64,000 bases of DNA from a bacterium (GTDB taxonomy: Bacteria > Patescibacteriota > Microgenomatia > UBA1400 > PJMF01): the NCBI GenBank assembly GCA_017431625.1, contig JAFRKQ010000015.1, positions 17,608 to 81,607 on the forward strand. The letters are read 5' to 3'. Shown here in pieces: positions 10,555 to 50,897 of this stretch (the first letter of the stretch is position 1; each line of letters opens with the position of its first letter). The translations under genes were made by a program, and so were the position numbers. The notes under the pieces were generated by a model. That model was not told the origin of the DNA, did not search any database, and saw nothing but the letters and a program-made list of their open reading frames with translations.

Positions 10555-10654
10555 GGCGATCCTTCTAGTCACTTTTTTCTAATAGCTATTTTACCACACT
10601 TTTGTGACTTTTTACGTCAAAAAAAGGTGAAAATGGTTGACAAACACATTAATG

Positions 10655-10800: not shown

Positions 10801-10831
10801 TTCAAGTGCTAAGCGCCAGATGCTCTTTTTG

Positions 10832-10840
10832 TGATATAAT
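10832..10840 (+). promoter_or_regulatory. Extended -10 (TGaTATAAT) for RNase P RNA
   Basis: 7 nt upstream of the predicted P1 5' strand. Confidence 0.5.
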
Positions 10841-10846
10841 ACACCC

Positions 10847-12561: not shown

Positions 12562-12699
12562 GTTTTTGATTATACTGACAATGTTGTCAAATGATTTCGC
12601 CACTGAGGCCTTTTTACTGACAGTTTGCTGATAAAAATGCCTTGAAATCAATATTTATTTGTGATTGATATTTCGTCATTTTTGTACGCTTGGGGTGGC

Positions 12700-12729
12700 T
12701 TGACAAGTGGCCGGACTATTTGTTACAAT
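12700..12729 (+). promoter_or_regulatory. Sigma70-type promoter of the pilin operon (TTGACA-18-TACAAT), leaderless
   Basis: -35 TTGACA 12700-12705, -10 TACAAT 12724-12729, ATG 12737 seven nt downstream. Confidence 0.6.
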
Positions 12730-12736
12730 GGTTTTT

Positions 12737-13399: not shown

Positions 13400-13940
13400 T
13401 ATGCCAAAACACAATCGATACCTTCACCATTTGCCTGCCACTTCTATCATTGAGCTGATGGTCTCGGCGGCTTTAATTGGCATGGTTTTAACAGCGCTCA
13501 CACTCAACATGGCGCGGACACAGCGCACTCTGGAGAATACTTTTTTACGTTCCAAGGCTACTGATATGGCCAATAGTTGTATGAATTATTTTCGGGCTGC
13601 CAGAGATAATAATGAGTGGCCAATTTTTTGTGATAGAGTTAAGAATGTTACAGTTAATTCTACTGGTTCTCCTCTTGGCGGTAATATCAATGCTAGTTCA
13701 AGCATTTTGAATCCAATTTGTCCGCAAGGTGCGTATGCTGGATCAAATTTTTATTTAAATCTCGCTAGGAGTGGGCGTAGTGGTTGCTCTAATATAGAGT
13801 GTTTTTGTAAAGGAAATCGTGATGAAGCGTATTTTAATCTACAAGTTATTGTACATTATCAGGATGCCATTGGTGTGGACAAATCTGTTACAGTGACCGA
13901 GCGTTTCTCTCGCGGTCAGCTTGATGCTGAATATAAATAA
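13392..13940 (+). CDS. Minor pilin-like protein (degenerate prepilin N-terminus)
   Basis: ..PA|TSIIELMVSAALIGMVL with Glu at +5; Cys-rich C-terminus; alternative start ATG 13401. Confidence 0.5.
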   Translation: MINMPKHNRYLHHLPATSIIELMVSAALIGMVLTALTLNMARTQRTLENTFLRSKATDMANSCMNYFRAARDNNEWPIFCDRVKNVTVNSTGSPLGGNINASSSILNPICPQGAYAGSNFYLNLARSGRSGCSNIECFCKGNRDEAYFNLQVIVHYQDAIGVDKSVTVTERFSRGQLDAEYK

Positions 13941-14038
13941 ACTATAGTAGTGCTTGTCGCGATTGTAATGTTGCCAAATGCCAGCGATTTGTGTTATAAT
14001 GAACTTGAAAATTGACAACAATAATTGAGAAAGATAGT

Positions 14039-15475: not shown

Positions 15476-15476
15476 A

Positions 15477-16604
15477 ATGTCAATACCCAAAGGCTATCCG
15501 ACGCCTCGTGTGCCTTCACCAACCAAAAGTGAAGACTGGCAAATTGGTGGACAACAAGATGCGGCGGGCAAAGTGCAGATGATTTTTGCGGGACAATCAC
15601 CAGCTTTCCCGGATTTAGTGCCCGCCAGCGAGCTGCCTGCGTCCAGCGCGTCTACTCCTACTCCACCACCGACACAGACACCGAGTCCCTCGGCGCATAA
15701 AATTCGCCGACGTCCGGACAAAATGAAAGGCCCGGGCTTTAATTGGCGAGGACTACATTGGCCATTGTATATTTCAGCGCTTGCAGTCGTGATTTTGTTG
15801 GCTCACGTACTGATGCGCTTTGCTAGTATGAGTGGCTTGCGCGATAATTTGGGTCACGAGTATCTGAATCAAGATTTGACACGTTTGGGAGCACCGCCTG
15901 TTGTTCCTTGTTTGGCTAGCGAAGAGGTGACTCTGCGTGAAAGCTTGGACGAGTTGGCGGCGACTTATGAGGCGACCTATTTTCGCGAGGAGCCAACCGT
16001 TGATGACCGAGCGCTTTTGGAGCGTTTCCTTAAACCAGCTCGAGTGGCTCAAGCGGTGGATTGTCTTGGCGGTGTCTATTGCCGGCAAGATTTTACCAAT
16101 CCGACGCTGCAAAAGTCAGTAATTCGGCATCTTTTGGCTTATGATTTGTCTTTGGTGCCAGGGCATAGTGAACCAGCCGGAACTTTTATGGTACAGCTGT
16201 ACTCGATGTTTGGTACCAAGCAAGTGGATTTGGCCACCGTACCTGATTTGGATTATCAAGCAGCTGATGAGACTTTTATTGTGCCCACACCTGTGGATGC
16301 GCCCACGCCTGCTTATGACTATACTTTGGAAGCTATTTGGATCAGTCCTAGTGAGGATGAAGCTGTATATCAAGCGCTTATGACGCCGACGCCGTCGTGT
16401 ACCTTGTCACTGCACGGCCAATGTTCTTGTCCACTGGCTCGTTACTATTTGGTTTTGCGCTATGATCCCGAAAGTGATCACTGGATGCACGCTTATCATT
16501 TTGTCCGTCGTCTTGGAGGAATTGATAATTTGCAGACTGGCGAACAAGTGACTGCGCCCGCGGCTTCAGACTCGACAAATGTTTTAGAAAGTGATAAACT
16601 ATAA
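15477..16604 (+). CDS. Single-pass membrane protein, paralog B
   Basis: TM LHWPLYISALAVVILLAHVL; CLGGVYCRQDF and CTLSLHGQCSCPLARYYLV motifs. Confidence 0.6.
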   Translation: MSIPKGYPTPRVPSPTKSEDWQIGGQQDAAGKVQMIFAGQSPAFPDLVPASELPASSASTPTPPPTQTPSPSAHKIRRRPDKMKGPGFNWRGLHWPLYISALAVVILLAHVLMRFASMSGLRDNLGHEYLNQDLTRLGAPPVVPCLASEEVTLRESLDELAATYEATYFREEPTVDDRALLERFLKPARVAQAVDCLGGVYCRQDFTNPTLQKSVIRHLLAYDLSLVPGHSEPAGTFMVQLYSMFGTKQVDLATVPDLDYQAADETFIVPTPVDAPTPAYDYTLEAIWISPSEDEAVYQALMTPTPSCTLSLHGQCSCPLARYYLVLRYDPESDHWMHAYHFVRRLGGIDNLQTGEQVTAPAASDSTNVLESDKL

Positions 16605-16630
16605 AAACAAAATTGCAAAGAAAGTAGCTT

Positions 16631-18253
16631 ATGCCAACAACCAATATTAATAATAGTCCTAATGCCAATTTGTCCACGCCTACTCCTATCGTGCCGGCGG
16701 GTTCTGCCCCCCAACCAGCAGCACCTGTGGGTGAGATTCCGACGCTCAATCCGGCACTGGTGAGTACTGGTCTACCCACTTTGGGTCAAAGTCTTTTGAT
16801 CTCTACCACTCCTCCACCCGCTGCCCCCACGCCGGCCCCTGCCGCTGCATTGAGTCAAACACTACCAACTACTGCGCCTGTTGTCCCGCCTTCATCGCCA
16901 GCTCCAGTGGCTACCCCTACTCCTTCTACTCCACTAGTCCCGCCAGCTCCCGCACCGGCGCCAGCTAGTCCAATTGCCCCCACCCCAACACCAGCGACAG
17001 TACCCACTCATCCGGTAGGTCTGGCCACACCTTCTGTGGGTACGCCACCGACCGCGGCACCACCAGCAACGGCTTCTGTTCCTACGCCGGGATTGCCACC
17101 AACACCAACACCAACACCGATGTCTGTACCAGCAGTGTCTTCAACACCAGCTCCCGCACCGGCGCCAGCTGCTACTCCCGCTCCAGTAGGCCCAGTCTCG
17201 GCTCCTAGTGTGCCGCCTATGCCAGGAACTGGTACAGGTACTAATACCTCGGGGAGTGTGCCGCCAGTGATCCCTTCAGTAGCACCCACCGCTCCTGGTG
17301 CTGAGCCCAAGCCAGTAACTCCTATTGCAGAAACGCCAGCCGCTAAGCCCGAGAAGAAAACTGATCTGACGATGATTATTTTGGCGGTCGTTTTGGTGAT
17401 TCTTGTAGTGGTCGCGGGTGTGTTGTGGTGGATGAATGCCAATGGCAAAAGTCTTTTTGGTGGTCAGGTGGCAACGGTGGTCACTCCTGAGCCTGTGGTC
17501 GCGCCTATTACTACCCCAGAGCCGGTCGCTGACGCTTCACCCGGTGGCTCGCGTGAGGAATTGGTGGCGATTGATGTCGATGATCTTTGTTATGTCAATC
17601 CCGACTCTTTGGGCCAACAAAAAGATGTGGAAGAGTTTGTCACTTGGGTCAATAATTATTTTACTGACGATTTGGAAAACAGTGAGTATTACCAAAATCT
17701 TTTTAACTATTATATGGAACGAGCCATCATGGCACCACCACTTTGTGACTCACATCAGTTGTATTGCCGCGCTGCTTTCAGTGAGCGGCCAGATTTTGTG
17801 GCTCAGTTTAGTCATTTTGGTGAACAATGGGAGCGACAAACTACCGAGTCAAAAACGCTCACGGGCCAGTCAATTCGCGATCGGGCGTTGATTGATTTTA
17901 ATATGCCTGATTTGGTCTTGGATGAGAATACTGGTCGTGGCAGTCTAGCTGGTAATGGCTGGAAATACAATGCCGATCAAGATATATTGCTTTCTTTTGG
18001 TGAGTATACTTTGCCCCAGCAAGATTACACTTATCGGTTTGTTAAGGGTATGCAATTGGCGGCTACCCAAGAAGTGGTGCTGATCGGACAAGGGGTGGCA
18101 ACACAAAATTGCAAGGAGGAAAATAACTGTGTTTGCGAAGCTTCACAAATATATTTGTATTTACAAAAAGGGCCAACCGGCGAGCTTTATTATTCTAATC
18201 TCTTTATTGAGCCATTGGTAGGCAAAACTGCTGAGGTAGATGCTGATTTATAA
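16631..18253 (+). CDS. Single-pass membrane protein, paralog C (240-aa Pro/Ala/Thr-rich N-terminus)
   Basis: TM LTMIILAVVLVILVVVAGVLWW; LCDSHQLYCRAAF and NCKEENNCVCEASQIYLYL motifs. Confidence 0.6.
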   Translation: MPTTNINNSPNANLSTPTPIVPAGSAPQPAAPVGEIPTLNPALVSTGLPTLGQSLLISTTPPPAAPTPAPAAALSQTLPTTAPVVPPSSPAPVATPTPSTPLVPPAPAPAPASPIAPTPTPATVPTHPVGLATPSVGTPPTAAPPATASVPTPGLPPTPTPTPMSVPAVSSTPAPAPAPAATPAPVGPVSAPSVPPMPGTGTGTNTSGSVPPVIPSVAPTAPGAEPKPVTPIAETPAAKPEKKTDLTMIILAVVLVILVVVAGVLWWMNANGKSLFGGQVATVVTPEPVVAPITTPEPVADASPGGSREELVAIDVDDLCYVNPDSLGQQKDVEEFVTWVNNYFTDDLENSEYYQNLFNYYMERAIMAPPLCDSHQLYCRAAFSERPDFVAQFSHFGEQWERQTTESKTLTGQSIRDRALIDFNMPDLVLDENTGRGSLAGNGWKYNADQDILLSFGEYTLPQQDYTYRFVKGMQLAATQEVVLIGQGVATQNCKEENNCVCEASQIYLYLQKGPTGELYYSNLFIEPLVGKTAEVDADL

Positions 18254-18306: not shown

Positions 18307-18384
18307 TTACCGAAACACTCGCGACTGCCGAGCTGTGCACACAGCTGTGCAGTCGTGTGCGGAGCTCCGCGCGGAGCTCCGCAC
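18307..18384. repeat. GC-rich palindromic element (family Z), full copy; bidirectional terminator between convergent genes
   Basis: TTACCGAAACACTC...GCTGTGCACACAGC...GTGCGGAGCTCCGCGCGGAGCTCCGCAC. Confidence 0.65.
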
Positions 18385-29115: not shown

Positions 29116-29409
29116 GTGACTTATTATACACTAAAATTGACAAAAATGGCACTAGTCTTGTTTGATCTTGTGCGGATATAAAAATATCGGTTACTGACAT
29201 TTAGACTTATAAAATTAAACGAGACTGATAAAATTGCCTGTAAAAATCCCATAAGTTTTGATTTAAACAATTGATATTAATATCTAAAAATTATTAACTA
29301 ACGCTAATATTGGGGCTTGCACTTTTGTCGGTTTTGTATTATAATAGGGGCGTTTGGGTAACCAGACGAAAAGCGAAAATAGAATTTGAGAAGAAATATT
29401 AAGGGCGAT

Positions 29410-31632
29410 ATGTTAAAAAATAATAAACTGCTTTACATTTTACCAGAAATGTCTTTCACAGCAACCGTGGGTGAAACGCCAAAACAGGACTATTATTTTG
29501 TCCAAACATTTCACCAAATTAACGGTGAGTTTATGCGCGATGAGAACTTTATTCACGAAAGCCTCAAAAAGTTGTTTGAGCGTGTGGAAGAAGCGCAATA
29601 TACTTTGGTATTGCCAGATTTTCTTTTTACAGATACTATTGTTAATGTACCCGAAACAGACGATGTCAAAATAGCTCAGTATTTGCGTGATCAATTGTTA
29701 CCACGCATTGAAGTCTCAACATTTTCGCACGAGACACGCACGTCGGTACTACTTCAGCGTAAAACTACGGCTAAAGTGCAGCTGTCGGCTTTTGAAAAGG
29801 AGCTGGCGGCTTCGTTGAAATTAGCCATTGGCAGTCGTGACATCACCATTGATGAAATTGTGCCTTTGTCATGGGCGCTCAAAGCAGCTGTCAGTCTTGA
29901 ACCCTCGCTCACTATTGCCCAAGTTGGTGAACGGTTATATTTGGCTGAACACTATATCGGTATTAATCAGACGATTAGTACCCCGATTAATGATTTGGAC
30001 GTGCTAGCGGAGTCGGTACGGACTTTGAAAGGCTCTGATCCTAATTTGCAAACCACTTATCTTTTCACCTCACAACTGGTGGAAGAAAAACTCAAGAAGT
30101 TCTTACTCAAGACTTTGCCGGTACAGCAGCTGACAGAGCCCATCGAAGAAGAAGCAAAAATTCCCCCATATGTCAAGCAAATTATTGAAGTGACTGCTAG
30201 AACTTTGAGTCTGTCGGATTTTGCTGTGCCTCGTTTCACTCTCCAGGCTGACGATCTTTTGGGTCAGATTCCCGCTTTGCCGGTCACCCAAGCAGAAGAA
30301 ACAACTGAGACAAAAGTCGAACCCGAAACAAGCGTGGAGTCCATTGATAATCATGATAATCAATCAACGAAGGAGCAAGCGGCCGAGGTGGCAGCTGTAG
30401 CGACAGCGGTGGCTCGCAGTTTGGACTTGGAGACGGCTAGTGACGCCGCGCTAGCATCACCAACAGCAAAACAATCTCAGTCGCCAGCAGACTCGACAAC
30501 GTCAGCAGCAAAATCAGCAGTAGCCTTGGACTCGGAAAAAGAAACTCCTCAACAAGCTTCGGAGTCCGAGGTCAGCGAGCCGGCTCAACCGGCGGCAGCC
30601 GAGCAAGCAAGTGAAGTGCCGGCGACGACAGCAACACCACCACAAGTGGCAACGGCTAGTCTCAATCGCGAGCCAACGCTGACGCAAGCAGCGGTGAGCG
30701 CAGAGTCAGTCGCAGTTGATGCCAAATCAGAAGCGTCATCATCTACGTCTCAGGCAGAGGTTACGGCACAAGCGTCACCGGTTTTGGTAGAGTCAGCGCC
30801 AGCGATTGCTGCTAAGCCGGAGACACCCGCTCTGGCGTCAGCATCAACACCGGCTCAACTCAAACAACCAGAAACGCCAGTCTTAAGTCAACCAGCGAAA
30901 GTGGAACAATTGCCTAGCAATGAGGCGATGCCGCGTTTGAGTTTCATGTCTCCCAAGCAAACTGCAACTAGCGAAACTATATCAGCGACTAATAACCCCA
31001 GTTCTCAGGATACTGAAGCGACCAAAAACGATAAAACTAGTGCAAAAAATGACAAAAAAGATGATAAAATATCAGCTAGTAAGCAATCGACGAGCAAGAA
31101 GAAAGGAAGCATGTCTTCATTTATAAAAAAATTACTGTTGTTTTTGTTGATTTTTGTGATTGTCATCGCTATCGGTATTGGTGTTGGGGTGTTAATCTTA
31201 TCCATGACCGATAAAGATTTTTTCAAGCGTGACGATTTACCAGAACCAGAGATGTCAGCTTTGCCCACGCCTGAGCCAGAAGAAGTGCCAGTACCCGAGG
31301 AATCTTCACCTGAAGCGGAAATTGTTGAGGAAGAAGAAGAAATTGATCCGGCTGAGTTTTCACTTAAAGTGGTTAATGCCACTGGGGTTGCTGGATTGGC
31401 TGGCAAGGCCAAAACTGCTCTTGAATCAGCAGGTTTTAGTGGCGTGCAAACCGGCAATGCTGCTGGTGAATATGAGACAGAAGGCACTTTTGTCTTGATG
31501 AAGGAAAAAAATTCGGCACTGATTAAGGCTTTGGAACAAGCTACCGGGCGGACGATGAATTACGATGAGGATGTAGACGTGGAAGACAAGGCTGGTAGCT
31601 TTGACGCGGTCATTGTCCTTAATGAGGAATAA
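29410..31632 (+). CDS. Membrane protein with cytoplasmic N-terminal domain, ~290-aa Ser/Ala/Thr/Glu-rich linker, TM helix and C-terminal LytR_C domain
   Basis: TM LLLFLLIFVIVIAIGIGVGVLIL; C-terminus FSLKVVNATGVAGLAGKAKTALESAGFSGVQTGNA...DAVIVLNE matches LytR_C; ATG 29410 with SD AAGGG. Confidence 0.6.
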   Translation: MLKNNKLLYILPEMSFTATVGETPKQDYYFVQTFHQINGEFMRDENFIHESLKKLFERVEEAQYTLVLPDFLFTDTIVNVPETDDVKIAQYLRDQLLPRIEVSTFSHETRTSVLLQRKTTAKVQLSAFEKELAASLKLAIGSRDITIDEIVPLSWALKAAVSLEPSLTIAQVGERLYLAEHYIGINQTISTPINDLDVLAESVRTLKGSDPNLQTTYLFTSQLVEEKLKKFLLKTLPVQQLTEPIEEEAKIPPYVKQIIEVTARTLSLSDFAVPRFTLQADDLLGQIPALPVTQAEETTETKVEPETSVESIDNHDNQSTKEQAAEVAAVATAVARSLDLETASDAALASPTAKQSQSPADSTTSAAKSAVALDSEKETPQQASESEVSEPAQPAAAEQASEVPATTATPPQVATASLNREPTLTQAAVSAESVAVDAKSEASSSTSQAEVTAQASPVLVESAPAIAAKPETPALASASTPAQLKQPETPVLSQPAKVEQLPSNEAMPRLSFMSPKQTATSETISATNNPSSQDTEATKNDKTSAKNDKKDDKISASKQSTSKKKGSMSSFIKKLLLFLLIFVIVIAIGIGVGVLILSMTDKDFFKRDDLPEPEMSALPTPEPEEVPVPEESSPEAEIVEEEEEIDPAEFSLKVVNATGVAGLAGKAKTALESAGFSGVQTGNAAGEYETEGTFVLMKEKNSALIKALEQATGRTMNYDEDVDVEDKAGSFDAVIVLNEE

Positions 31633-40356: not shown

Positions 40357-41661
40357 TTAGTAGGCTTCATCATTATAGCGTGAGTTGATACCCCAATCAC
40401 TGATTTTGGCAACACCATGTCCAGTGTGACCAACACCCAAGGGATATTGATCTCCGTTGGGAGTTGGCATACGCTCTTGCTGGCGTCGTTGATTGTCCCA
40501 CGCATAGCCTTCACCGTCAATCATGGTGGTAGACTCAAAGTGGTAACCGGTGGGCGACAAGCTGCACTCCACACTAGGAGTTTTAGTCAGACAATCGGGA
40601 TCATTTTGACTGGCGACACCTACACAACCAGCGTGCCCAGCAATGTAAGATGAACCACCACCGCCAGTGCCGACGTAGTTGGTAACACTACCACCAGCTT
40701 CCCCACCATACCAACCGCCACCACCGCCGCTGCCATAACTAGGTGCACTACCGCCTTGGCCAAAAGCACTCCGACGCCAGAAATCGCCCGCAGTGACTTC
40801 ACTGGTTACTTGTGTTCCGCCTGCTCGATTGATGTAATCGGGAGACTCGTCACCACAAAAAGCAAAATTTGTATTAGTGCCAGAATAACCAACAAGTCCA
40901 CCGGCACTACCACCTTTGGCACGACAACCAGCATAATTGAGCGCGCCACCGCCACCACCGGCAACCATAATCCGACTGCTGAGGGAACCGGTATCGTACC
41001 ATTCTCCTTTGATCAGGCGAATATCAGTGGCACCGCCACCACCGCTTCCCCAAGAGGATGGGGCTACGCCACCAGCGCCGCCGGCATTAAATGCTGCTGT
41101 TTTTTCGCCGTTGCCCACAACATGTTCGCCGACATAAACATAAACGATCGTGTCATTGTCAACAGTGAGTATCCCCGCGGTATAAGCTCCACAGCCACCG
41201 TCATTGTGCTGTTCGTCAATATTGCCACCTTGGGCACCCCAAAGTTCAACATAATACGTGTGATTGGCCTTGAGTGTCACCGTCTGCACTGCTCCTGTAT
41301 AAGTAAAAATCTTGCTACCATGCTCTGCTATTGTTTGTTCTTGGGTGTCGGTAACGACTATGCTATTATTGTCAGGCGGAATTTCCCAGTCAATCTTATT
41401 ATCTATAGCAACGTGACTTGGTGATGAGGGTGCGGGTGTGGGTAATGGTTGACCATCGTCGTTTTGGCTTGCAATATTCAAGAAACTGTCTTGAGAAGTC
41501 GATCTGGGTGTTTGATAGGTAGTAATTGCAGCGGCACCAACCAAAGTGACAATGACGATAAAAACACCAATGGTAACAATCGTGCTAGTGTCATCACTGT
41601 TAGGTTGGTATTTTGAAGCGGTATTATTGCTAGTATTGAGATTTTCTTCTTGACTGGACAT
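40357..41661 (-). CDS. Membrane-anchored glycine-rich-domain surface protein
   Basis: N-terminal TM IVTIGVFIVIVTLVGAAAI, then YVELWGAQGG...GGGGA...GGSAGGLVGY...GGGGGWYGGEAGG repeats reminiscent of the ALK-type Gly_rich domain; own promoter TTGACA-17-TATAGT. Confidence 0.6.
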   Translation of the reverse strand: MSSQEENLNTSNNTASKYQPNSDDTSTIVTIGVFIVIVTLVGAAAITTYQTPRSTSQDSFLNIASQNDDGQPLPTPAPSSPSHVAIDNKIDWEIPPDNNSIVVTDTQEQTIAEHGSKIFTYTGAVQTVTLKANHTYYVELWGAQGGNIDEQHNDGGCGAYTAGILTVDNDTIVYVYVGEHVVGNGEKTAAFNAGGAGGVAPSSWGSGGGGATDIRLIKGEWYDTGSLSSRIMVAGGGGGALNYAGCRAKGGSAGGLVGYSGTNTNFAFCGDESPDYINRAGGTQVTSEVTAGDFWRRSAFGQGGSAPSYGSGGGGGWYGGEAGGSVTNYVGTGGGGSSYIAGHAGCVGVASQNDPDCLTKTPSVECSLSPTGYHFESTTMIDGEGYAWDNQRRQQERMPTPNGDQYPLGVGHTGHGVAKISDWGINSRYNDEAY

Positions 41662-42458: not shown

Positions 42459-42494
42459 ATGGCTCCTTTCTGTAATAATTTTTAATTACCTGTG

Positions 42495-42545
42495 ATTATA
42501 GCACAATTTTTAGCAATGTCAACACCCAATTGCTAGTAGTGCTAA
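42495..42545. promoter_or_regulatory. hsp20 promoter (TTGACA-16-TATAAT, minus) overlapped by CIRCE-like inverted repeat
   Basis: TTAGCAATG-N9-AATTGCTAG (42510-42536) followed by AGTGCTAA (42538-42545). Confidence 0.55.
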
Positions 42546-42574
42546 AAAAAACTAATTTTTTCTTGATTGATGGG

Positions 42575-42730
42575 AAAAAATTGTCTATTTTAGTGAATTA
42601 TCCTATAATTTATGAGATTGTCCAGACTAATTTAAAACGGAATAATATATTATAGGATAAATAGTAACTTTTTTGCCTGGAAAAATATGGCAAAACTTGG
42701 TTAAAATCCTATAATAATTAAAAATTATGG
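42575..42730. repeat. ATTATAGGAT/ATCCTATAAT box repeat element, copy 2
   Basis: ATCCTATAAT-N40(GTCCAGAC)-ATTATAGGAT-N47(GCCTGGAAAAA)-ATCCTATAAT. Confidence 0.7.
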
Positions 42731-42795
42731 AGTAATTATCAATTTGATATAAAAACTGGCGGGCGAAAAAGACAAAGTCGTGATATAATAGGGGC

Positions 42796-44544
42796 ATGAA
42801 GCAAAAACTGACGAGTTTTTTGGCCTGGTTTGATGACTATTTTTTGTTGATAGCTAGTATTTTTTTGCTGTTTTTTATTCCTTTGTGGCCCAAAATTCCC
42901 TTGGCTGATATTATTCCAGGCTATATTGTCCGCTTGCGCCTGGAAGATATTTTCGTTTTTGCGATTTTTGTGATTTACTTGATCCAAGTGGCTCGAGGTA
43001 AGGTTGCCTGGCGGATGCCCACTTGGCAGTTAATTTTTGGTTACGTAGCAGTAGGTTTAATGTCGATATTGACAGGAATTTTTGTCATTCATACAATTCC
43101 GTTTCTCCTACCAGAGATGGGCAGCTTGGGTGACGTTATCGCCGCCGGTGTGCATGTGGCAAAGTCATTTTTGCACTGGGCACGTTACATTGAGTATTTT
43201 TTCTTGGCTTTTTTATTCTATTCAGCTATCAACAAGCGCGTGGCCCTCAAAACAATCGCAGCGTGCATGTTATTGACGGTGGTAGCGATCACAGTCTACG
43301 GTTGGGGGCAAAAGTATTGCTATTGGCCCGTTTATTCAACGATGAACCGAGAATTTGCCAAGGGTATGAAGCTGGTGCTTACTCCTCATGCTCGGGTACA
43401 ATCAACTTTTGGTGGCCATTATGATTTTGCGGCCTATTTGGTATTACTTTTGCCTTTTACTCTCATGATTGCCAAAAAGGCCCGTAATATCTGGCCAAAG
43501 TATCCTCGTTTGTTGACTGGCTTGGCATGGTTGGCTCATTTTGCGGGAGTCTGGAGCTTGATTATTTCGGCAGCCAGAACCTCAATTATTGCTTATTTTA
43601 TAGGTACAGTTTTGGTTTTTACTCTTGATGTTTTTATGAGTAAACGGCCTCGTCGCCGTCAGGTATGGGCTTGGTGTAGTCAACAAGTGGCTTATTTTGC
43701 TTTGGTGGGCGTGCTTGTTTTTGGTTGGGGACAAGACATGATTGAGCGTTTTGAACACACACTCGACTCAATTCCTTGGGTACATGATACGTATCACACC
43801 GCCAACCGTTGGCGCAAAGAATTACCTTATAAATTGGGCTGGAAGGAATGGGAACAGCCAGAGGGAACAGTAGCTGTTGTGGTTGATGATTTTGGTAATA
43901 ATTCGGTGCTCACGCCAACTGACACACAACCGCAACCAGTCGCGCCATCACCTTCATCGGAACCCACCAGTGACAATCGTCCAGTGGATGTTTATGAGGA
44001 TATTCCGGATATTAAGATAGCAGTGGATGCTTCGGGTAACGCTTATACTTATGAAGCTACCCGGACTTGGTCGGTCAATGCAGAAAAATACGGTTTGTCG
44101 ATGGCCATCCGTTTTGATACTCTCTGGCCCAATGCCATTCGTGGTTTTAGTCGCAATCCCCTTTTGGGGAGTGGCTATGGTACCCTGACTAAGGGTGAGT
44201 CACTCTCGGTTTTTACCGAGGCGGATAGCACTGATTGCAATTATTTGCGCACTTTGGGTGAAACAGGACTTTTGGGCTTTATTTGTTTTTATGGTGCCGT
44301 TGTTTGGGCCATTATTATTGCTTGGCAGCAATGTCGTCTGGCTGATAATTTGCTACAGATGATCAATTTGGCTTATTTGGGTGCAGCGGTGGGTATCTTG
44401 GTGAACGCTTTGTATATCGATGTTTTCGCGGCTTCTAAAGTAGCGTTTACTTTCTGGATGTTGACTGGTATCTTTTGGGCATCACAAAAGAAGGCTATTA
44501 GAGCCATTGAAATAACTCAAGATGAGAAAAAAGTTGACGCTTAA
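42796..44544 (+). CDS. O-antigen ligase/Wzy_C-family polytopic membrane protein
   Basis: ~10 TM helices, large external loop ending in DCNYLRTLGETGLLGF (O-antigen-ligase H/N-x-x-L...E-x-G motif); leaderless. Confidence 0.6.
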   Translation: MKQKLTSFLAWFDDYFLLIASIFLLFFIPLWPKIPLADIIPGYIVRLRLEDIFVFAIFVIYLIQVARGKVAWRMPTWQLIFGYVAVGLMSILTGIFVIHTIPFLLPEMGSLGDVIAAGVHVAKSFLHWARYIEYFFLAFLFYSAINKRVALKTIAACMLLTVVAITVYGWGQKYCYWPVYSTMNREFAKGMKLVLTPHARVQSTFGGHYDFAAYLVLLLPFTLMIAKKARNIWPKYPRLLTGLAWLAHFAGVWSLIISAARTSIIAYFIGTVLVFTLDVFMSKRPRRRQVWAWCSQQVAYFALVGVLVFGWGQDMIERFEHTLDSIPWVHDTYHTANRWRKELPYKLGWKEWEQPEGTVAVVVDDFGNNSVLTPTDTQPQPVAPSPSSEPTSDNRPVDVYEDIPDIKIAVDASGNAYTYEATRTWSVNAEKYGLSMAIRFDTLWPNAIRGFSRNPLLGSGYGTLTKGESLSVFTEADSTDCNYLRTLGETGLLGFICFYGAVVWAIIIAWQQCRLADNLLQMINLAYLGAAVGILVNALYIDVFAASKVAFTFWMLTGIFWASQKKAIRAIEITQDEKKVDA

Positions 44545-46081
44545 ACGCTCTCACTGGTTTTTGGCATTTATTCTTAGTCTGGCTTTTGCCGTTCGGCTTT
44601 ATCGACTTACTTATCCTTTGCTTGATTGGCATTCTTTTCGTCAAGCTGATACTGCTTCGGTCACGCGTGAGTTTGTCAAACATCGCTATCCTATTTGGCG
44701 GCCACATTATCATGATCTTGGTGATATCCAAAGTGGTTTGGACAATTTGGCTGGTGATCGGATGGTAGAATTTCCTTTAGTGAATTATTTGCTGGCGTGT
44801 TGGCTGCGAGTTTTTCCTACTTGGGATTTGGTAGTGACCTCGCGTTTGGCAGCCGCGCTGGCCTCCACTGGCTCATGCTGGTGTCTTTATTGGCTGGTAA
44901 AAAAGCTCGTATCTAGCAACAGTGATGATGACTCGCAAGTGGAATGGCTAGCACAACTTTCGGCCTTAACGATGGCAATTCTGCCTTATTCTATTTATTA
45001 TGGTCGAGTCATCTTGCCAGAACCTTTTCAGGTTTTTTTTGGCTTGTTAGCGCTTGTGAGTTTTGTGAGCTATTTGCGAGAGCATCGCTGGTCATCTTGG
45101 GGTTTGACGGTGGTGAGTTTGCTGACTGCTTTGCTCATCAAACCGACAACAGTTTTTTGGGGACCTTTATTTTTACTTTTGGCTTGGCAAAAAGATGGTT
45201 GGCATTGTCTCAAACGCGGCGATTTGTGGCTTCTGGCTTTGGTGGCGGTTTTGCCTTTGGGGTGGTGGCGGTTATATATTCGCCAGTTTCCGGCGGGGAT
45301 TCCGGCGAGTGACTGGTTGTTTAACGGACCAATTGCTGGTGTGGCTCCACGTTGGCGGCCGATGTGGTGGCGCTGGCTTTTTTACGAACGTTTGACCAAG
45401 GATTGGCTGGGTTGGTTGGGAGCCATGTGGCTGATTTTGGGATTGTATCCTCTATCGGTGTTTCACCGAAAAACTCACGTCTCTTGGCGACAGCTTGATA
45501 TTTTTGTTTATTGTTGGTTGGCACTTGATTTTGTTTATCTGAGTGTTTTTGCTCGTGGTAATATTCAACATGATTATTATCAATATCTTTTATTGCCAGC
45601 GGTAGCTGTGTTGGTAGGTCGTGGGGTGGCAATTTTTGTCAGTTGGACCCAGCGTTTTTGGCCATGGCGAAGTTTAACGATAGTGCTAGCGGTAGTTATC
45701 AGTGCTGGTGCTTGGTGTTTGGCTTGGCAGCGCGTGGGTGGCTATTTTAATGTCAATAATTGGGCTCAAGTACGGATTGGTCATCAAGCAGATTTGCTGC
45801 TACCAAGTGATGCCTTAGTGATCGCTCATGCTTATGATGCTGATACTAGTTTTCTTTTTCAAACCAATCGTTGCGGTTGGTCTACAGGGTTGGAGTTGGA
45901 GGATAAAATTACCAAAGGTGCACATTTTTTTGTGGGCACTGATACTGATGATTTATATCACCATTTGCTTGACAATTATCAGCTTTTGGCGCAAAATGAG
46001 GATGGCTTTATTTTTGATTTGACCGCCAGTAGTGCAGGACAGCTAACAGCGACGGCAAGTGGACAAGAAAGACAACCATGA
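44522..46081 (+). CDS. ArnT/PMT-like GT-C fold membrane glycosyltransferase
   Basis: Polytopic; N-terminal LRLYRLTYP...FRQADTA loop typical of lipid-carrier-dependent glycosyltransferases. Confidence 0.55.
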   Translation: MRKKLTLKRSHWFLAFILSLAFAVRLYRLTYPLLDWHSFRQADTASVTREFVKHRYPIWRPHYHDLGDIQSGLDNLAGDRMVEFPLVNYLLACWLRVFPTWDLVVTSRLAAALASTGSCWCLYWLVKKLVSSNSDDDSQVEWLAQLSALTMAILPYSIYYGRVILPEPFQVFFGLLALVSFVSYLREHRWSSWGLTVVSLLTALLIKPTTVFWGPLFLLLAWQKDGWHCLKRGDLWLLALVAVLPLGWWRLYIRQFPAGIPASDWLFNGPIAGVAPRWRPMWWRWLFYERLTKDWLGWLGAMWLILGLYPLSVFHRKTHVSWRQLDIFVYCWLALDFVYLSVFARGNIQHDYYQYLLLPAVAVLVGRGVAIFVSWTQRFWPWRSLTIVLAVVISAGAWCLAWQRVGGYFNVNNWAQVRIGHQADLLLPSDALVIAHAYDADTSFLFQTNRCGWSTGLELEDKITKGAHFFVGTDTDDLYHHLLDNYQLLAQNEDGFIFDLTASSAGQLTATASGQERQP

Positions 46082-47292
46082 AAATATTGATGCTTACGCC
46101 ATATCTCCCCTATCCCCTGCTTTCTGGAGGTCAGATTCGGACTTATAATTTACTCAAAAAAATGGCCGACAAACACGAGATTACTCTTTTTGCGCTGATT
46201 AAAAATGAACAAGAGAAACAGTATATTAAAGAACTTGAACAATATTGTCATAAAGTGCGAGTTTTTAAGCGCTCGAGTAAACCTTTTACGCTGCGCAATA
46301 TTCTGCGTACGGCCATTTCGAGCTATCCGTTTTTGGTCATTCGCAATCATGTCTCATCAGTGATTAGTGCCGTCAGACAAGAGCTCGAGAGTGAAAATTA
46401 TGATTTAATTCACGCGGAGACTTTTTACATGATGCCTCATTTACCAGCTACTAAAATTCCGGTAATGCTGGTGGAGCAGACGATTGAGTATTTAGGCTAT
46501 GAAAGTTTTGCACAGACGACTCGCTGGCAGTTTTTGCGTCCTTTGCTGAAAATTGATATTAATAAAATTAAGTACTGGGAAAAGTATTACTGGCAGCACT
46601 GTGATCAACTCGTCACGATGAGCGAGGACGATAAAACTTTTATTGCTAGTGAAATTGGTGAAACCACACCAATTGATGTGGTGGCTAATGGTGTGGATAC
46701 AGCGTGGTTTAGTGAGCAAAAATTTGCCAAAAGAAAAGTACCAACACTTTTATCGGTGGGAACTTTTAAGTGGTTGCCCAATGTTGAGGCAGTACGTTTT
46801 CTCATTCAGAAAGTCTGGCCGTTAATTAAAAGGCAACGTCAAGATATTAAACTTTGGGTGGTGGGTAATGCGCCCACTGATGAAATCTTGCGTTTCGCGG
46901 CTCGTGATCCGCAAATAGAAGTTTCTGGCCGTATTGCTGACATCCGTGAGGCTTTTGGTGGGGCGCACATTCTTTTGGCACCGGTGTTTTCTGGTAAAGG
47001 TACGCGCTATAAAATTTTGGAGGCGATGGCTTCGGGTACGCCGATTATTGCCACTAGTACCGCGGTTGAGGGTCTGGGTGTGGTCAATCGCGAAGAGGTA
47101 ATTATTGCCGATACTGCGGAAGCGATGGCTCGTGAGGCTTTGGCTTTATTGGCTGATGACCAACTGCAAGCAAGACTTTCTCACGGTGGGAGGCAATTTG
47201 TACGCGAACATTATGATTGGGAGTTAATCGCCAAGCGCTTGGATGATATCTACCAGCGAGTGGGTAAAAAAGATAATGCAAGAAAAAATTGA
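46078..47292 (+). CDS. Glycosyltransferase family 4
   Basis: MKILMLTPYLPYP...SGGQ N-domain, EAMASGTPIIATSTA C-domain. Confidence 0.8.
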   Translation: MKILMLTPYLPYPLLSGGQIRTYNLLKKMADKHEITLFALIKNEQEKQYIKELEQYCHKVRVFKRSSKPFTLRNILRTAISSYPFLVIRNHVSSVISAVRQELESENYDLIHAETFYMMPHLPATKIPVMLVEQTIEYLGYESFAQTTRWQFLRPLLKIDINKIKYWEKYYWQHCDQLVTMSEDDKTFIASEIGETTPIDVVANGVDTAWFSEQKFAKRKVPTLLSVGTFKWLPNVEAVRFLIQKVWPLIKRQRQDIKLWVVGNAPTDEILRFAARDPQIEVSGRIADIREAFGGAHILLAPVFSGKGTRYKILEAMASGTPIIATSTAVEGLGVVNREEVIIADTAEAMAREALALLADDQLQARLSHGGRQFVREHYDWELIAKRLDDIYQRVGKKDNARKN

Positions 47293-48151
47293 TTTGTCAA
47301 TTATTATTGTCAGTTATAATGGCAGCTTTTGGCTCAAAAAAACGCTTGAGAGTCTCAAGGAGTTTTACTTGGATCAGACGACCAAACGAGTGGCAGTTTA
47401 TTTAGTGGATAATGCGAGCACTGATGATGTGGTGGTAATGACACGTCAAAACTTCCCGTTTGTACAGATTATTGAGTTAGAAAAAAATTTGGGATTTGCG
47501 GCCGCTAATAATCGAGCGCTCAAAGAAATTTCTAGCGACTATGTGATGCTGCTAAATCCCGATACGCAATTGGACGAACGCTCGCGAATAGATTTACTGC
47601 TTGATTATTTATCCGCTCACCAGGAGGTGGGTATGATTGGTCCTAAGCTGTTGTTGACAGATGGACGCTTGGATCCAGCGTGTCATCGGGGTGAACCCAA
47701 TCCGTGGGCAGCAGCGTGTTACTTTTTGCGGTTGGAAAAATTGTGGCCACGTTGGCGTTTGGTTAATGGTTATCACCGTGGCGATTTGGATATGGATAAG
47801 ATTCATTCGATTGAAGCTATTTCTGGGGCAGCGATGATAGTGCCACGATCAGCTCTTGAGGTAGTCGGACTTTTGGATGAGAGATTTTTTCTTTACGCTG
47901 AAGATTTGGATTGGGCGCGACGTTTTCGGGAAGCTGGTTACCAAATTATTTACGATCCCGAATGTATTATCATTCATCACAAAAATAAAACTGGTATTGC
48001 CAATCAAGATGCACAAATTTCTGGCAAGAGTCGTGAGTATTTTTTCAATACCATGCTACAATATTATGACAAGTATTATGCCGACAAACTACCAAAATTT
48101 ATGCGTCGGCTTGTCCAAAGTTTTTTATTTGTCAAAAAAGAAGGTTGGTAA
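47276..48151 (+). CDS. Glycosyltransferase family 2
   Basis: LSIIIVSYNG...VDNASTDD, DxD-type GT-A fold. Confidence 0.8.
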   Translation: MQEKIDLSIIIVSYNGSFWLKKTLESLKEFYLDQTTKRVAVYLVDNASTDDVVVMTRQNFPFVQIIELEKNLGFAAANNRALKEISSDYVMLLNPDTQLDERSRIDLLLDYLSAHQEVGMIGPKLLLTDGRLDPACHRGEPNPWAAACYFLRLEKLWPRWRLVNGYHRGDLDMDKIHSIEAISGAAMIVPRSALEVVGLLDERFFLYAEDLDWARRFREAGYQIIYDPECIIIHHKNKTGIANQDAQISGKSREYFFNTMLQYYDKYYADKLPKFMRRLVQSFLFVKKEGW

Positions 48152-48227
48152 ACCGAAACACTGAGGACTGCATAGCTCCGCACACATCTCGGCAGTCGCT
48201 TACACAGCTCCGCGCCGAGCTCGGCAG
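48151..48227. repeat. GC-rich palindromic element (family Z) copy; terminator-like after GT2 gene
   Basis: AACCGAAACACT...CAGCTCCGCGCCGAGCTCGGCAG. Confidence 0.6.
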
Positions 48228-48303
48228 TGTGAATAATAGTAGTTAAAGACAAATAATAAAATTGCTCACGCACAAATTAAATTTTGCGTGTATAATCGCC
48301 TTT

Positions 48304-49347
48304 ATGGATGTAAGTAAACTCTATGTGCAAGATTTTCGTCAGTTCGCACAAAGAACTTGGGATTTGGCGCCGGGAATCAATCTGGTGATTGCTCCCAATG
48401 GTTCGGGCAAAACGACATTACTTGAAGCTTTGCATCTTTTGGCTACTGGCAAGAGTTTTCGGGCGAACAAAACCGTCGAGATGGTGCGCTTTGGTCAGGA
48501 AATTGCGAGAGTTTATGCACTAGCTGATGATAAGCTCAAACTAGGGATAACACTGACGGGCGGATTGGTAGGTGGTCAAAAGGCAGCTGCTAAATATTAT
48601 CAAATCAACCAAACGAGAAAACGGGCGGTAGATTTTGTGGGTAATTTGCTGACAGCCACGTTCAGGCCAGAGGATTTGCGTTTGATTGAAGGCTCAAGCA
48701 GTAGACGACGCGATTATTTGGATGGACCTTTGAGCCTAGTCAGCCAAGTATATCGGGAAGCTGACAAAAAATATTCAGCTGCCTTGATACGTCGTAACAA
48801 GACACTCAAAGCGATTCGTGACGATGGCTTGGATGAAAGCTTGTTGTCATTGTGGGATCGGCAGGTGCTGGAATTTGGACCCGTGGTGCAAAGATTGCGA
48901 GCTGCTTATGTTGATTTTGTCAATACGCGGGTGCAGTTCGCTCGCCCGTATCATCTTATATATCAACATTCTCTCATGAGTCCAGAAAGACTCCTCTCTC
49001 ACCGTCGGGCTGAGCTGGCTGTTGGTTATACTTTGGTGGGGCCGCATAAAGATGATTTACTCATTGAAGCCGAGCTGGGCGGACAGATGGTCAATCTCGC
49101 GACTTATGGTTCGCGTGGACAACAACGTCTGGCAGTGTTGTGGCTCAAATTGGCTGAGCTTGAGTATATCAAGCGAGAGACCAAGCGAGTGCCGATTTTG
49201 CTTTTGGATGATATTTTTTCCGAGCTGGATGATCAAGCGCGCGAGCTCGTACTTGCCCAAGTGCAACAACAAACCACCATTATTACTTCTATTGATCAAG
49301 AATTGACAAAAATAATCGGTAAGCAAGTAAATACAATAGTTTTATGA
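48304..49347 (+). CDS. recF: DNA replication and repair protein RecF
   Basis: Walker A APNGSGKTTLLEA, RecF signature regions; leaderless (TATAAT-7nt-ATG 48304). Confidence 0.85.
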   Translation: MDVSKLYVQDFRQFAQRTWDLAPGINLVIAPNGSGKTTLLEALHLLATGKSFRANKTVEMVRFGQEIARVYALADDKLKLGITLTGGLVGGQKAAAKYYQINQTRKRAVDFVGNLLTATFRPEDLRLIEGSSSRRRDYLDGPLSLVSQVYREADKKYSAALIRRNKTLKAIRDDGLDESLLSLWDRQVLEFGPVVQRLRAAYVDFVNTRVQFARPYHLIYQHSLMSPERLLSHRRAELAVGYTLVGPHKDDLLIEAELGGQMVNLATYGSRGQQRLAVLWLKLAELEYIKRETKRVPILLLDDIFSELDDQARELVLAQVQQQTTIITSIDQELTKIIGKQVNTIVL

Positions 49348-49925
49348 CAATAAATAATCACATGTCACAAGAAATTACCGCGTCCACACTGGAAACAGTA
49401 CCGGGGCGGCGACGTTTGACCAAAGAAGTCAAAATAATTTTGGCTGCTTTGGCTACGGTCATCATTGTGGGGCTTTTGGGACAAGTGTTGCGTCACTGGC
49501 GGCGTGAGTATACCACTTTGTCGGCGTATCTGCTGAGTCTGCCTGATTATTCTTATGTGACCGCTTCGATTAATGATCAACCTTTTCGTTTGGAGCTGGT
49601 CAATACTAATACTTCAAGACAGCAAGGTTTGTCAGATCGCAGTGAAATTGGCAGTGATGGTATGCTTTTTGTGATGCCGATGTTGGGCACTTATCCTTTT
49701 TGGATGCCACGCATGCATTTTGATTTGGATATTGTGTGGTTGGCTGAAGATCAGATTGTGGATATTACACCCAATGTGCCGGCCCAACCAGGTGTGCCTT
49801 TGGGTCAGCTGCCATTTTATACCAATGATCAGCCTTGTAATCTGATTTTGGAGTTGCCAGCGGGACGAGCCGCACTTTTAGGTCTGCAAGTGGGCGACAA
49901 ACTGGTAGTCCAGCGCGACTTATAA
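49344..49925 (+). CDS. DUF192-domain protein
   Basis: Signal anchor then LDIVWL...beta-rich DUF192-like core; ATGA overlap with recF. Confidence 0.6.
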   Translation: MTINNHMSQEITASTLETVPGRRRLTKEVKIILAALATVIIVGLLGQVLRHWRREYTTLSAYLLSLPDYSYVTASINDQPFRLELVNTNTSRQQGLSDRSEIGSDGMLFVMPMLGTYPFWMPRMHFDLDIVWLAEDQIVDITPNVPAQPGVPLGQLPFYTNDQPCNLILELPAGRAALLGLQVGDKLVVQRDL

Positions 49926-50897
49926 AGTTGTGAGTAATAAGGTAGCCTGACCTTCTAGGGTGTACTCTCCCAAGCCAGCGGGAATAAAAGCGGTTTCCCC
50001 TTTTTGGAAGGTGTAAATCATCCCCGAGTGTACAATTTGAAATTGACCCTCGAGAGTGAGATAAACCTGACAACTACCACCGGTAGCTTTTTGGGTAAAA
50101 GCTGATTGTAAAGTGAGTTTGCGGACGTGGAAATAATCGCAAGCGGCCAGTTCCTGCCAACTATTGCCCTCAACGGTGGGTACTGGTGGGGCGAGTGGTG
50201 CCAGGGGTGTAGGCTCAAGAGTGCTGACAGCCAAAGCATCCTTGATATGCAAGGGACGCTTTTTACCATCAAAATCTACTCGACCATAGTCACAGACGCG
50301 ATAAGTCAAGTCACAGGCTTGTTGAATTTCGGCAATCAAAAGACCCTTGCCAATGCCATGGACAGTGCCAGGCGGCAAGAAAAAGACATCGCCGGGATGA
50401 GCAGGCACTTGGCGTAAAATTTCGGGTAAAGTGTCATTTTCGATGTGCTTTTTGAAGTCACGTCGGTCGGTAATTTCGGCTACACCATAATAAAGACTAG
50501 CACCGGGTTGGGCCTCGACTACGTACCACATTTCGGTTTTTCCCGAAAAATTGGGACCCGGTCCAGCATAACCTTTGCCTGGATGGACTTGAATGGAGAG
50601 ATCATCCATGGCGTCAATGTACTTAATAATTAAAGGAAAATCAGTACTTTTGGCCTGACGAGTAATAACTTTTGGCCCCATGGTCTCAAGATAATGAGTA
50701 AAAGTTTCACCAGCAAAAAAACCACCATCAATTTTGCTTTGACCATTAGGATGAGTGGAAACTTCCCATGATTCGGCGACGTTTTTGAGTTCCTTTTGGG
50801 GTTTTTTGCCATATTGCTTGACCAGACGCTGCCCGCCCCAAATTGTTTCGCGCAAAAAGGGATCCATTTTAAGAGGTGCTAAAAGCTCATTTATCAT
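49920..50897 (-). CDS. manA: Mannose-6-phosphate isomerase, class I
   Basis: ETIWGG N-terminus, LSIQVHP and cupin motifs; 325 aa. Confidence 0.75.
   Translation of the reverse strand: MINELLAPLKMDPFLRETIWGGQRLVKQYGKKPQKELKNVAESWEVSTHPNGQSKIDGGFFAGETFTHYLETMGPKVITRQAKSTDFPLIIKYIDAMDDLSIQVHPGKGYAGPGPNFSGKTEMWYVVEAQPGASLYYGVAEITDRRDFKKHIENDTLPEILRQVPAHPGDVFFLPPGTVHGIGKGLLIAEIQQACDLTYRVCDYGRVDFDGKKRPLHIKDALAVSTLEPTPLAPLAPPVPTVEGNSWQELAACDYFHVRKLTLQSAFTQKATGGSCQVYLTLEGQFQIVHSGMIYTFQKGETAFIPAGLGEYTLEGQATLLLTTL

Follow-up and report, generated by a model that had tools for sequence, protein, structure and literature searches.

The stretch of DNA examined here, hereafter the window, is a 64,000-nucleotide piece of contig JAFRKQ010000015.1 (assembly GCA_017431625.1) from a bacterium of the Patescibacteriota. 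Our subject is a group of four genes on its forward strand, encoding in order a membrane protein folded like the O-antigen ligase WaaL, a membrane-embedded GT-C glycosyltransferase, and two cytoplasmic glycosyltransferases of families GT4 and GT2 (Table 1). A sequence-only reading of this DNA had described the genes as tightly packed or overlapping, and both the coordinates and the overlaps were confirmed. Consecutive genes share 23 nt, 4 nt (ATGA) and 17 nt, which suggests translational coupling and, with it, a single translationally coupled operon. Although the GT2 reading frame could open at 47243, the start at 47276 is the one that matches the starts of four orthologues in an alignment. 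In the spacer upstream of the cluster, two promoter-like sites lie on the + strand (TTGTCT-17-TATAAT at 42581-42609 and ATGGCA-17-TATAAT at 42687-42715; consensus matches only), while the divergent HSP20 gene has on the - strand a 12/12 consensus match with a TG extension (42522-42495). Downstream, a spacer of ~110-150 nt separates the cluster from recF (48262-49347). The ATG at 48304 (MDVSKLYVQDFRQF...) is a likelier start for recF than the TTG at 48262, and the spacer is then ~150 nt.

Table 1. Features of the cluster and its immediate flanks (window 42459-48232).
Feature	Position	Strand	Basis
WaaL-fold (GT-C_B) polytopic membrane protein, 582 aa, large extracytoplasmic region	42796-44544	+	Pfam, AlphaFold2/Foldseek, conservation
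Signature motif DCNYLRTLGETGLLGF (first-protein residues 480-495)	44233-44280	+	WaaL alignment, conservation
GT-C_A glycosyltransferase (ArnT/PMT-like, PMT_2), 519 aa	44522-46081	+	Pfam, AlphaFold2/Foldseek, orthologues
Cytoplasmic GT4 (GT-B) glycosyltransferase, 404 aa	46078-47292	+	Pfam, NCBIfam, PDB relatives
Cytoplasmic GT2 (GT-A) glycosyltransferase, 291 aa	47276-48151	+	Pfam, NCBIfam, orthologue-fixed start
AT-rich intergenic spacer (337 nt), HSP20 gene divergent from cluster	42459-42795	.	promoter-like sites in both directions
GC-rich repeat element 3' of cluster	48152-48232	.	degenerate, non-folding relative of palindromes 7796-7821 and 18321-18384

The four family assignments of the earlier reading (Wzy_C, ArnT/PMT-like GT-C, GT4 and GT2) hold on sequence, fold and synteny, and the kinds of enzyme are already known, since NCBI labels members of these families "O-antigen ligase family protein" and "glycosyltransferase family 39 protein". 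For the first protein the sequence evidence is faint. In the hidden Markov model classification that the earlier reading had proposed, residues 433-499 match Pfam Wzy_C (PF04932) with a score of 32.0 bits where the cut-off is 31.7, which is marginal; orthologues give mostly weak or faint matches, and a fusion protein of the family (P0276) gives none at E <= 0.01. NCBIfam holds no model that matches the protein, and a search of all PDB chains, with the protein alone or with a 62-sequence profile, returned no meaningful sequence match, the WaaL structure 7TPG included. The fold is far clearer. An AlphaFold2 model built on the 62-sequence alignment has a mean pLDDT (predicted local distance difference test) of 82.6 and a predicted template-modelling score of 0.85, and its only disordered part is a Pro-rich stretch at 362-404. 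In a Foldseek search the top PDB match of this model is WaaL (7tpg_B; E 7.3e-6, probability 1.0, TM-score 0.41/0.56), the sole significant match, with FtsW as runner-up at E 0.2. A confident model with WaaL as its one significant PDB match establishes, for the predicted structure, a WaaL-type (GT-C_B) fold, and the family that shares it is 41-69% identical over 80 species-level genomes.

A histidine is regarded as catalytic in WaaL and in the O-oligosaccharyltransferase PglS, where the substitution H324A inactivates the enzyme (PMC12800693). Reference residues were fixed by aligning WaaL of Escherichia coli (Ec) to 7TPG from Cupriavidus metallidurans (Cm), so that Cm R191, R265 and H313 correspond to Ec R215, R288 and H337. 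The family was mapped onto them in three ways: by hhalign of profile A1 against the single E. coli WaaL, by HMMER with the family profile against the Cm WaaL fragment, and by local-mode hhalign against a 38-sequence WaaL alignment (37 enterobacterial sequences and the Cm fragment). R261 aligns with Cm R191 and Ec R215, R439 with Cm R265, and D480 with Cm H313 and Ec H337; the three mappings are mutually consistent, and they agree with the region matched by Pfam and with the spacing to a conserved glycine 11 residues on. By these low-probability alignments, the equivalents of both pyrophosphate-binding arginines of WaaL are kept in the family, R439 in all 143 aligned representatives and the position of R261 as arginine or lysine. 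The position of the histidine is aspartate in 120/120 close homologues and in 140 of the 141 aligned representatives at 50% identity (260/261 in total), and histidine in none.

The O-antigen-ligase loop motif pointed out in the sequence-only reading is therefore present, but with aspartate for histidine: the string quoted there, DCNYLRTLGETG, is the ligase signature H-N-x-[YF]-L-x4-E-x-G with that one replacement, and the family consensus at this site is DNN[FY]LRTLGETG. The next residue, 481 (window 44236-44238), is asparagine in 115 of 120 homologues and cysteine in the window protein and four close relatives; judged from the alignment, the change of the conserved Asn to Cys481 is specific to this clade. 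Other invariant histidines of the first protein, H120, H127 and H208, lie in loops that we read as extracytoplasmic from the model. Because an invariant aspartate stands at the catalytic-histidine position that defines WaaL/PglL membership, the family appears from its sequences not to be a canonical ligase or O-oligosaccharyltransferase; it plausibly works in a related way despite the aspartate.

The second protein matches Pfam PMT_2 at 37.5 bits against a cut-off of 26.1, and its orthologues also match PMT (PF02366). Searched against all PDB chains, it has no meaningful sequence match to any solved GT-C enzyme. Its AlphaFold2 model (pLDDT 90.9) recovers STT3, PglB, AglB, ArnT, ALG9/ALG12, Pmt4 and EmbC in Foldseek, with probability 1.0 for STT3, PglB, ArnT, ALG9 and Pmt4 and the best TM-score for ArnT (5f15, 0.63/0.61); the GT87 member PimE reaches E 0.01 only. 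On this model the protein is confirmed as an ArnT/PMT-like GT-C of the GT-C_A fold, with a C-terminal extracytoplasmic alpha/beta domain. Its first loop carries the family motif DWHxFRQADTASVTRE, and its invariant residues include D35, R40, Q41, D43, E83, K207, H350 and D351, of which D35 and D43 are acidic residues in the first extracytoplasmic loop, just past transmembrane segment 1 (helix 2-25).

The two cytoplasmic enzymes are more conventional. The GT4 protein matches Glyco_trans_1_4 (85 bits) and Glyco_transf_4 (53 bits), and its orthologues score ~500-600 bits, the highest of the four cluster genes. Its best NCBIfam match is TIGR03087, a family of exopolysaccharide (EPS) type, at 207.8 bits and so below the cut-off of 316, and its nearest relatives of solved structure are PimA (E 1.7e-10) and PimB', both GDP-mannose-dependent. 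This likeness is a lead, suggested by sequence similarity, and not an assignment of sugar specificity. The GT2 protein matches Glycos_transf_2 (68 bits), resembles rhamnosyltransferase, EpsD and MftF types in NCBIfam, and has no predicted transmembrane segment; NCBIfam gave no curated-level match for the GT-C, GT4 or GT2 protein. We considered the GT2 as the donor synthase for the GT-C enzyme and rejected it: it lacks a transmembrane segment and matches the types just named, not the GtrB/ArnC/DPM1 type. The further GT2 that relatives encode upstream of the four core genes is of the same kind and is also not GtrB/ArnC-type.

The conservation of the locus was followed with a one-genome-per-species scan using two peptide patterns, which found the family in 209 species-level genomes; 80 loci (22 kb) were fetched, their open reading frames were classed by local phmmer, and counts were made only over loci with enough flank. 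In 72 of 74 loci the WaaL-like gene has the GT-C gene immediately 3' of it, and the order WaaL-like, GT-C, GT4, GT2 is kept in 58/64. Two additional GT4 genes (GT4b and GT4c), ManC and a phosphoglycosyltransferase follow downstream in 43 of 51 loci, and the further GT2 precedes the core in 64/68. In most genomes, whose WaaL-like proteins are 41-50% identical to that of the window, the four genes sit inside a conserved Wzx/Wzy-type cluster of ~16 genes. On the 5' side this cluster runs through a Wzx-type flippase (Polysacc_synt), an epimerase/dehydratase, a second PMT_2 protein, two GT4 genes, ruvCAB, a WcaF-like acetyltransferase and a GT2; on the 3' side the four core genes are followed by two GT4 genes, ManC, a WbaP-like polyprenyl-phosphate phosphoglycosyltransferase and a DUF4012 gene. 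Such full clusters encode seven cytoplasmic glycosyltransferases beside the phosphoglycosyltransferase, the flippase and the DUF4012 protein, and the WaaL-like protein is the only Wzy/WaaL-type protein identified in them. DUF4012 is enriched in the Candidate Phyla Radiation (CPR) and in Gram-positive bacteria and is present in a Bifidobacterium locus for capsular polysaccharide (CPS) or EPS (PMC6744442). In the gene calls for L002, L004 and L086, the sole unassigned conserved gene is that of the single-pass DUF4012 protein. A 370-aa unannotated membrane protein of L086 was weighed as an alternative Wzy and set aside as, by eye, another small GT-C-type protein.

The sequence-only reading had proposed lipid-carrier-dependent transfer from the presence of the GT-C enzyme, and this gains indirect support: in relatives the four genes lie beside a WbaP-like phosphoglycosyltransferase and a Wzx-type flippase. 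The clade to which the window belongs (L001/L007, L006, L008 and L038; 57-69% identity) has only the four-gene core left at the locus. Its flanks resemble those of the window, with HSP20 in L001/L007 and recF and a mannose-6-phosphate isomerase gene in L001/L007 and L006; in L038 only the isomerase is kept nearby. In the window this type I mannose-6-phosphate isomerase is encoded at 49920-50897 (-), downstream of the cluster, past recF and a DUF192 gene. It adjoins the cluster only in this clade, on which ground it was rejected as a cluster member, while distant relatives have ManC inside the cluster; the two genes hint at mannose in the glycan without proving it.

Several features of these loci deserve record in their own right. 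In L002 (6280-8350), L004 (6263-8333) and L087 (19619-21789), the glycan cluster includes ruvC-ruvA-ruvB, with two GT4 genes on one side of it and the acetyltransferase on the other; the gene order flanking this position is alike in most of the 80 loci, ruvCAB itself having been checked in these three. Many of the metagenome-assembled genome records that carry the locus are titled "uncultured Pseudomonadales bacterium", others Methylococcaceae, Limisphaerales or Flavobacteriaceae, and CP011212 is titled TM6 while the same protein is elsewhere named Pacebacteria GW2011_GWF2_38_9, so that such titles are unreliable for taxonomy.

The two membrane enzymes are not only neighbours. An exhaustive profile search gave 304 clusters at 50% identity with E <= 1e-30, from which 149 sequences were retrieved, and 67 of these are 800-1270 aa long and of three kinds. 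In P0276 and P0295 the WaaL-like domain is fused to the same GT-C family (A1 551/503 bits, A2 503/542 bits), P0276 having Pfam PMT_2 and PMT matches; in locus L086 this fusion stands exactly where other loci have the genes apart, flanked by the acetyltransferase on one side and the GT4-GT2 pair on the other. In the P0315 type (P0315, P0324 and P0327; P0324 is from Levybacteria) the C-terminal half is a different polytopic one, TMTC-like by eye and without a Pfam match. Near-universal adjacency together with fusion is strong evidence, and on these comparative grounds the WaaL-like and GT-C proteins probably act together, being fused in at least two lineages. The third kind consists of WaaL-like paralogues joined to a C-terminal membrane region and a metallophosphoesterase (P0249, P0252 and P0260; ~38 of the 149 by length and domain layout), and L087 has one such fusion, at 10001-13432, as a second copy upstream of its main cluster. 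The literature that we searched contains no description of a His-to-Asp active site of this sort, of an obligate and sometimes fused WaaL-fold/GT-C pair, or of a lineage-wide conserved cluster of this composition.

Other parts of the window had been tied to the cluster. The sequence-only reading had suggested that a nearby glf gene supplies UDP-galactofuranose and that the first protein might be a PglL/PilO-type enzyme acting on pilins. The glf gene is real (PF03275, 234.8 bits); synteny does not bear out its link to the cluster, as no glf homologue lies within 10 kb in the 80 loci. The pilin connection gains no support either: no homologue of the pilin-like gene at 12707-13399 occurs within 10 kb in those loci, and D480 takes the place of the histidine. 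Both genes were accordingly rejected as cluster members. The pilin-like genes themselves, 12707-13399 and 13392-13940 (+), are ~30 kb from the cluster and are known as such by Pfam N_methyl and by eye, a regular expression for the canonical prepilin motif having given no matches. They open a stretch (12707-18253, +) with the pilin-like N-termini AFTLVEMMV and SIIELMV, followed by three paralogous single-pass membrane proteins without a Pfam match, which are rich in Pro/Thr/Ala over their N-terminal halves and seem by eye to have a Cys-containing C-terminal domain (..C.CP..RYYLV..) in common.

A hairpin of a repeat family, family Z, had also been placed 3' of the cluster. The element at 48152-48232 does share words with two strong hairpins of the window, 7796-7821 (z-score -4.3) and 18321-18384 (z-score -6.3), but it folds no better than shuffled sequence (z about 0), and no terminator-like site was found within it, so that it was rejected both as a hairpin and as a terminator. 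These elements belong to a GC-rich palindromic intergenic family with the words GCCGAGCTC, GGAGCTCCGC and CTCGGCAGT, of which the copy at 48152-48232 is scrambled; the repeat word ACCGAAACACT occurs at 18309, 37250 and 48152. Two further proteins of the window are worth noting. A 434-aa protein (40357-41661, -) carries, after a hydrophobic N-terminal segment, an ALK/LTK glycine-rich domain (PF12810, 142.8 bits), which is named for animal ALK/LTK receptor kinases and is found here in a Patescibacterium. A 748-aa protein (29386-31632, +) has a C-terminal LytR_C domain as its sole Pfam match, with no LCP catalytic domain detected.

These enzymes belong to a Patescibacterium of Microgenomates/Pacebacteria type. 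Homologues of the first two proteins are named Woesebacteria, Pacebacteria or Patescibacteria group, and NCBI places Pacebacteria under Minisyncoccota. One paper on CPR genomes reports neither lipid A nor lipopolysaccharide (LPS) genes and describes the envelope as unclear in every CPR member studied so far (PMC5220378), and microscopy suggests that CPR bacteria have no Gram-negative envelope (PMC6744442). Among the scanned open reading frames of the window no lpx or kds gene turned up. Given the taxonomy of the homologues and this literature, it is reasonable to regard the organism as likely LPS-free, a judgement that rests on taxonomy, as a 64-kb window cannot prove it.

The folds, conserved residues, synteny and fusions described above are observations; from them we infer, in the following scheme, which substrates are used, how the steps follow one another, that a complex forms and whether the glycan is polymerised. 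The four genes would be the core, kept throughout, of a Wzx/Wzy-type pathway that depends on undecaprenyl phosphate and makes a surface glycan conserved across the lineage in Patescibacteria of the Microgenomates/Pacebacteria type. At the cytoplasmic face, GT4 and GT2 would extend a lipid-linked oligosaccharide. After flipping, the WaaL-fold protein would move the glycan en bloc from undecaprenyl pyrophosphate (Und-PP) to a hydroxyl acceptor, with R261 and R439 holding the pyrophosphate and D480 serving as base where WaaL uses histidine. The GT-C enzyme would be its obligate partner, probably in a complex, and would add a residue derived from a polyprenyl-phosphate sugar to the acceptor or to the glycan. 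As a general mechanism, a coupled WaaL-fold/GT-C pair in an undecaprenyl-phosphate-dependent envelope-glycan pathway is the account towards which we lean, if only by a little.

Several observations weigh against this account. The alignments that place D480 on the histidine are each weak (hhalign probability 3.5-29% and 6%; HMMER 1.6 bits, to the Cm fragment), and H120, H127 or H208 could supply a base instead. The phosphoglycosyltransferase, the flippase, ManC and the other glycosyltransferases of the cluster are absent from the whole 64-kb window, so that the pathway context is borrowed from relatives of 41-50% identity. A polyprenyl-phosphate sugar synthase for the GT-C enzyme (a GT2 of the GtrB/ArnC/DPM1 type) is not encoded nearby, and no Wzz-type polysaccharide co-polymerase (PCP) was found in the gene calls for L002, L004 and L086. 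Wzy polymerases are, moreover, not usually so strongly conserved in sequence as this family is (about 45% across the lineage).

In a narrower form of this account, the one that we prefer, tentatively and at somewhat under an even chance, the WaaL-fold protein would polymerise a wall-associated heteropolysaccharide in the manner of Wzy, or be its terminal transferase. It is the only Wzy/WaaL-type protein that we identified in the full clusters, whose contents resemble those of Gram-positive CPS/EPS loci. An aspartate base recalls the fold-related SEDS polymerases, which also speaks for a polymerase. In a further reading, which is possible and somewhat doubtful, the pair would form a two-enzyme outer-face machine specific to Patescibacteria, an aspartate-using WaaL-fold transferase physically coupled, and in some lineages fused, to an ArnT/PMT-like GT-C enzyme, that builds one lineage-conserved glycoconjugate as the major envelope polymer.

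Different in its acceptor is a protein O-glycosylation system, in which the first protein, like PglL, PilO or WsfB, would transfer an Und-PP-linked oligosaccharide to Ser, Thr or Tyr of surface proteins such as pilins or S-layer proteins, and the GT-C would be a second protein glycosyltransferase for the same targets. The fold class and the Wzy_C signature are common to such O-oligosaccharyltransferases, and the relatives' cluster, with its phosphoglycosyltransferase, flippase, acetyltransferase, many glycosyltransferases and no co-polymerase, also fits protein O-glycosylation loci. The glycan locus is conserved and not hypervariable, as general O-glycosylation systems typically are. The WaaL-like family is moreover fused to PMT-type and, by eye, TMTC-like domains, and those PMT and TMTC enzymes that have been characterised O-mannosylate proteins. 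CPR cells bear type IV pili, and to date glycosylation of the pilins is a prediction only (PMC11623550). Yet where PglS needs its histidine (the H324A variant is inactive, PMC12800693) this family has an invariant aspartate, no pilin gene lies less than 10 kb from the cluster in the 80 loci and those of the window are 30 kb away, and neither a target protein nor a sequon has been identified, so that we regard protein O-glycosylation as unlikely.

More distinctly unlikely, in our estimate, is a ligase akin to TacL or WaaL that would take the glycan from Und-PP and join it to an anchor, a membrane glycolipid supplied by the adjacent GT4, giving a lipoglycan that is the monoderm counterpart of LPS or lipoteichoic acid, which the GT-C would extend or decorate from polyprenyl-phosphate sugars, as in lipomannan synthesis. 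TacL is just such a WaaL-like monoderm protein, ligating teichoic acid chains to glucosyl-diacylglycerol (PMC5727136). The GT4's nearest solved relatives, PimA and PimB', act on a membrane lipid with GDP-mannose. ManC is found in the relatives' clusters and the mannose-6-phosphate isomerase gene beside the cluster in the window's clade, and a self-contained unit of anchor synthase, ligase and extender would explain why a lone four-gene core persists in that clade. The conserved locus, the lack of a co-polymerase among the genes called and the partnership with PMT-type and, by eye, TMTC-type GT-C domains speak for a ligase as much as for an O-oligosaccharyltransferase. But the specificity of the GT4 is not readable from scores, its best NCBIfam match being EPS-type and below the cut-off; the canonical ligase histidine is absent; CPR bacteria are thought to scavenge lipids, with no anchor lipid known; and the cluster's GT2 is not of the polyprenyl-phosphate mannose synthase type. 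Finally, the four genes could be unrelated neighbours and the first protein no glycan transferase at all but, say, a transporter or a peptidoglycan polymerase of the SEDS kind, since its Wzy_C score exceeds the threshold by just 0.3 bits, it has no sequence match to any solved structure, and FtsW is its second-best fold match. We consider this very improbable: WaaL alone is a significant fold match (E 7e-6, FtsW having 0.2), gene order is kept in 58/64 loci with fusions to the GT-C in situ, and relatives carry the gene in the midst of others for glycosyltransferases and a phosphoglycosyltransferase.

How the CPR/Patescibacteria envelope is composed and assembled has been called unclear (PMC5220378, PMC6744442), and this locus offers a concrete and widely conserved candidate pathway in organisms that live attached to hosts, for which the surface matters. 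If the first protein is indeed a WaaL-fold enzyme that uses aspartate, or one that works as a unit with a GT-C, either would broaden knowledge of the WaaL/PglL/Wzy superfamily, members of which serve in bioconjugate vaccine production (PMC12800693). Were the two-enzyme machine to exist, its product would be a functional counterpart of LPS or teichoic acids in ultra-small monoderms. The reduced four-gene form seen in the window, for its part, suggests which parts of the pathway are indispensable.

Set beside known systems, the first protein stands closest to WaaL of C. metallidurans (7TPG/7TPJ) and E. coli, with which it shares its only significant fold match, the Wzy_C signature, proposed equivalents of both pyrophosphate-binding arginines, and the spacing of the helix motif (x-N-x-[YF]-L-x4-E-x-G, against H-N-x-x-x-(6 residues)-G). 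It departs from WaaL in its invariant aspartate for Cm H313 and Ec H337, in being paired with or fused to a GT-C, in a length ~160 residues greater, owing to an extra extracytoplasmic insert that includes the disordered Pro-rich linker (362-404), and in a host organism reported to lack lipid A. With PglL, PglS and TfpO, and with WsfB of Gram-positive S-layer glycosylation, it shares the Wzy_C/WaaL-type superfamily, which transfers en bloc from Und-PP on the membrane's outer face. WsfB shows that the superfamily functions in monoderms. Unlike PglL, PglS and TfpO, the family has aspartate for PglS H324 (PMC12800693) and no adjacent pilin genes.

As with the Wzy polymerases of O-antigen, CPS and EPS, the protein has conserved arginines in its extracytoplasmic loops and is encoded, in relatives, with a phosphoglycosyltransferase, a Wzx flippase and multiple glycosyltransferases, genes that beyond the four-gene core the window lacks in its 64 kb; unlike them it has no Wzz/PCP partner that we found, is far better conserved, and has WaaL as its best fold match. 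TacL of Streptococcus pneumoniae, likened here by its description, is a WaaL-like monoderm enzyme that ligates an Und-PP-linked polymer to a glycolipid (PMC5727136), but the cluster contains no teichoic acid genes and coupling to a GT-C has not been described for TacL. The second protein, in turn, shares with ArnT (GT83) and PMT (GT39) the GT-C_A fold, the PMT_2 signature (also PMT in orthologues) and invariant first-loop aspartates, and it differs from them in having no sequence match to a solved GT-C, in a first-loop RQADTA motif of its own, and in being genetically locked to a WaaL-fold enzyme.

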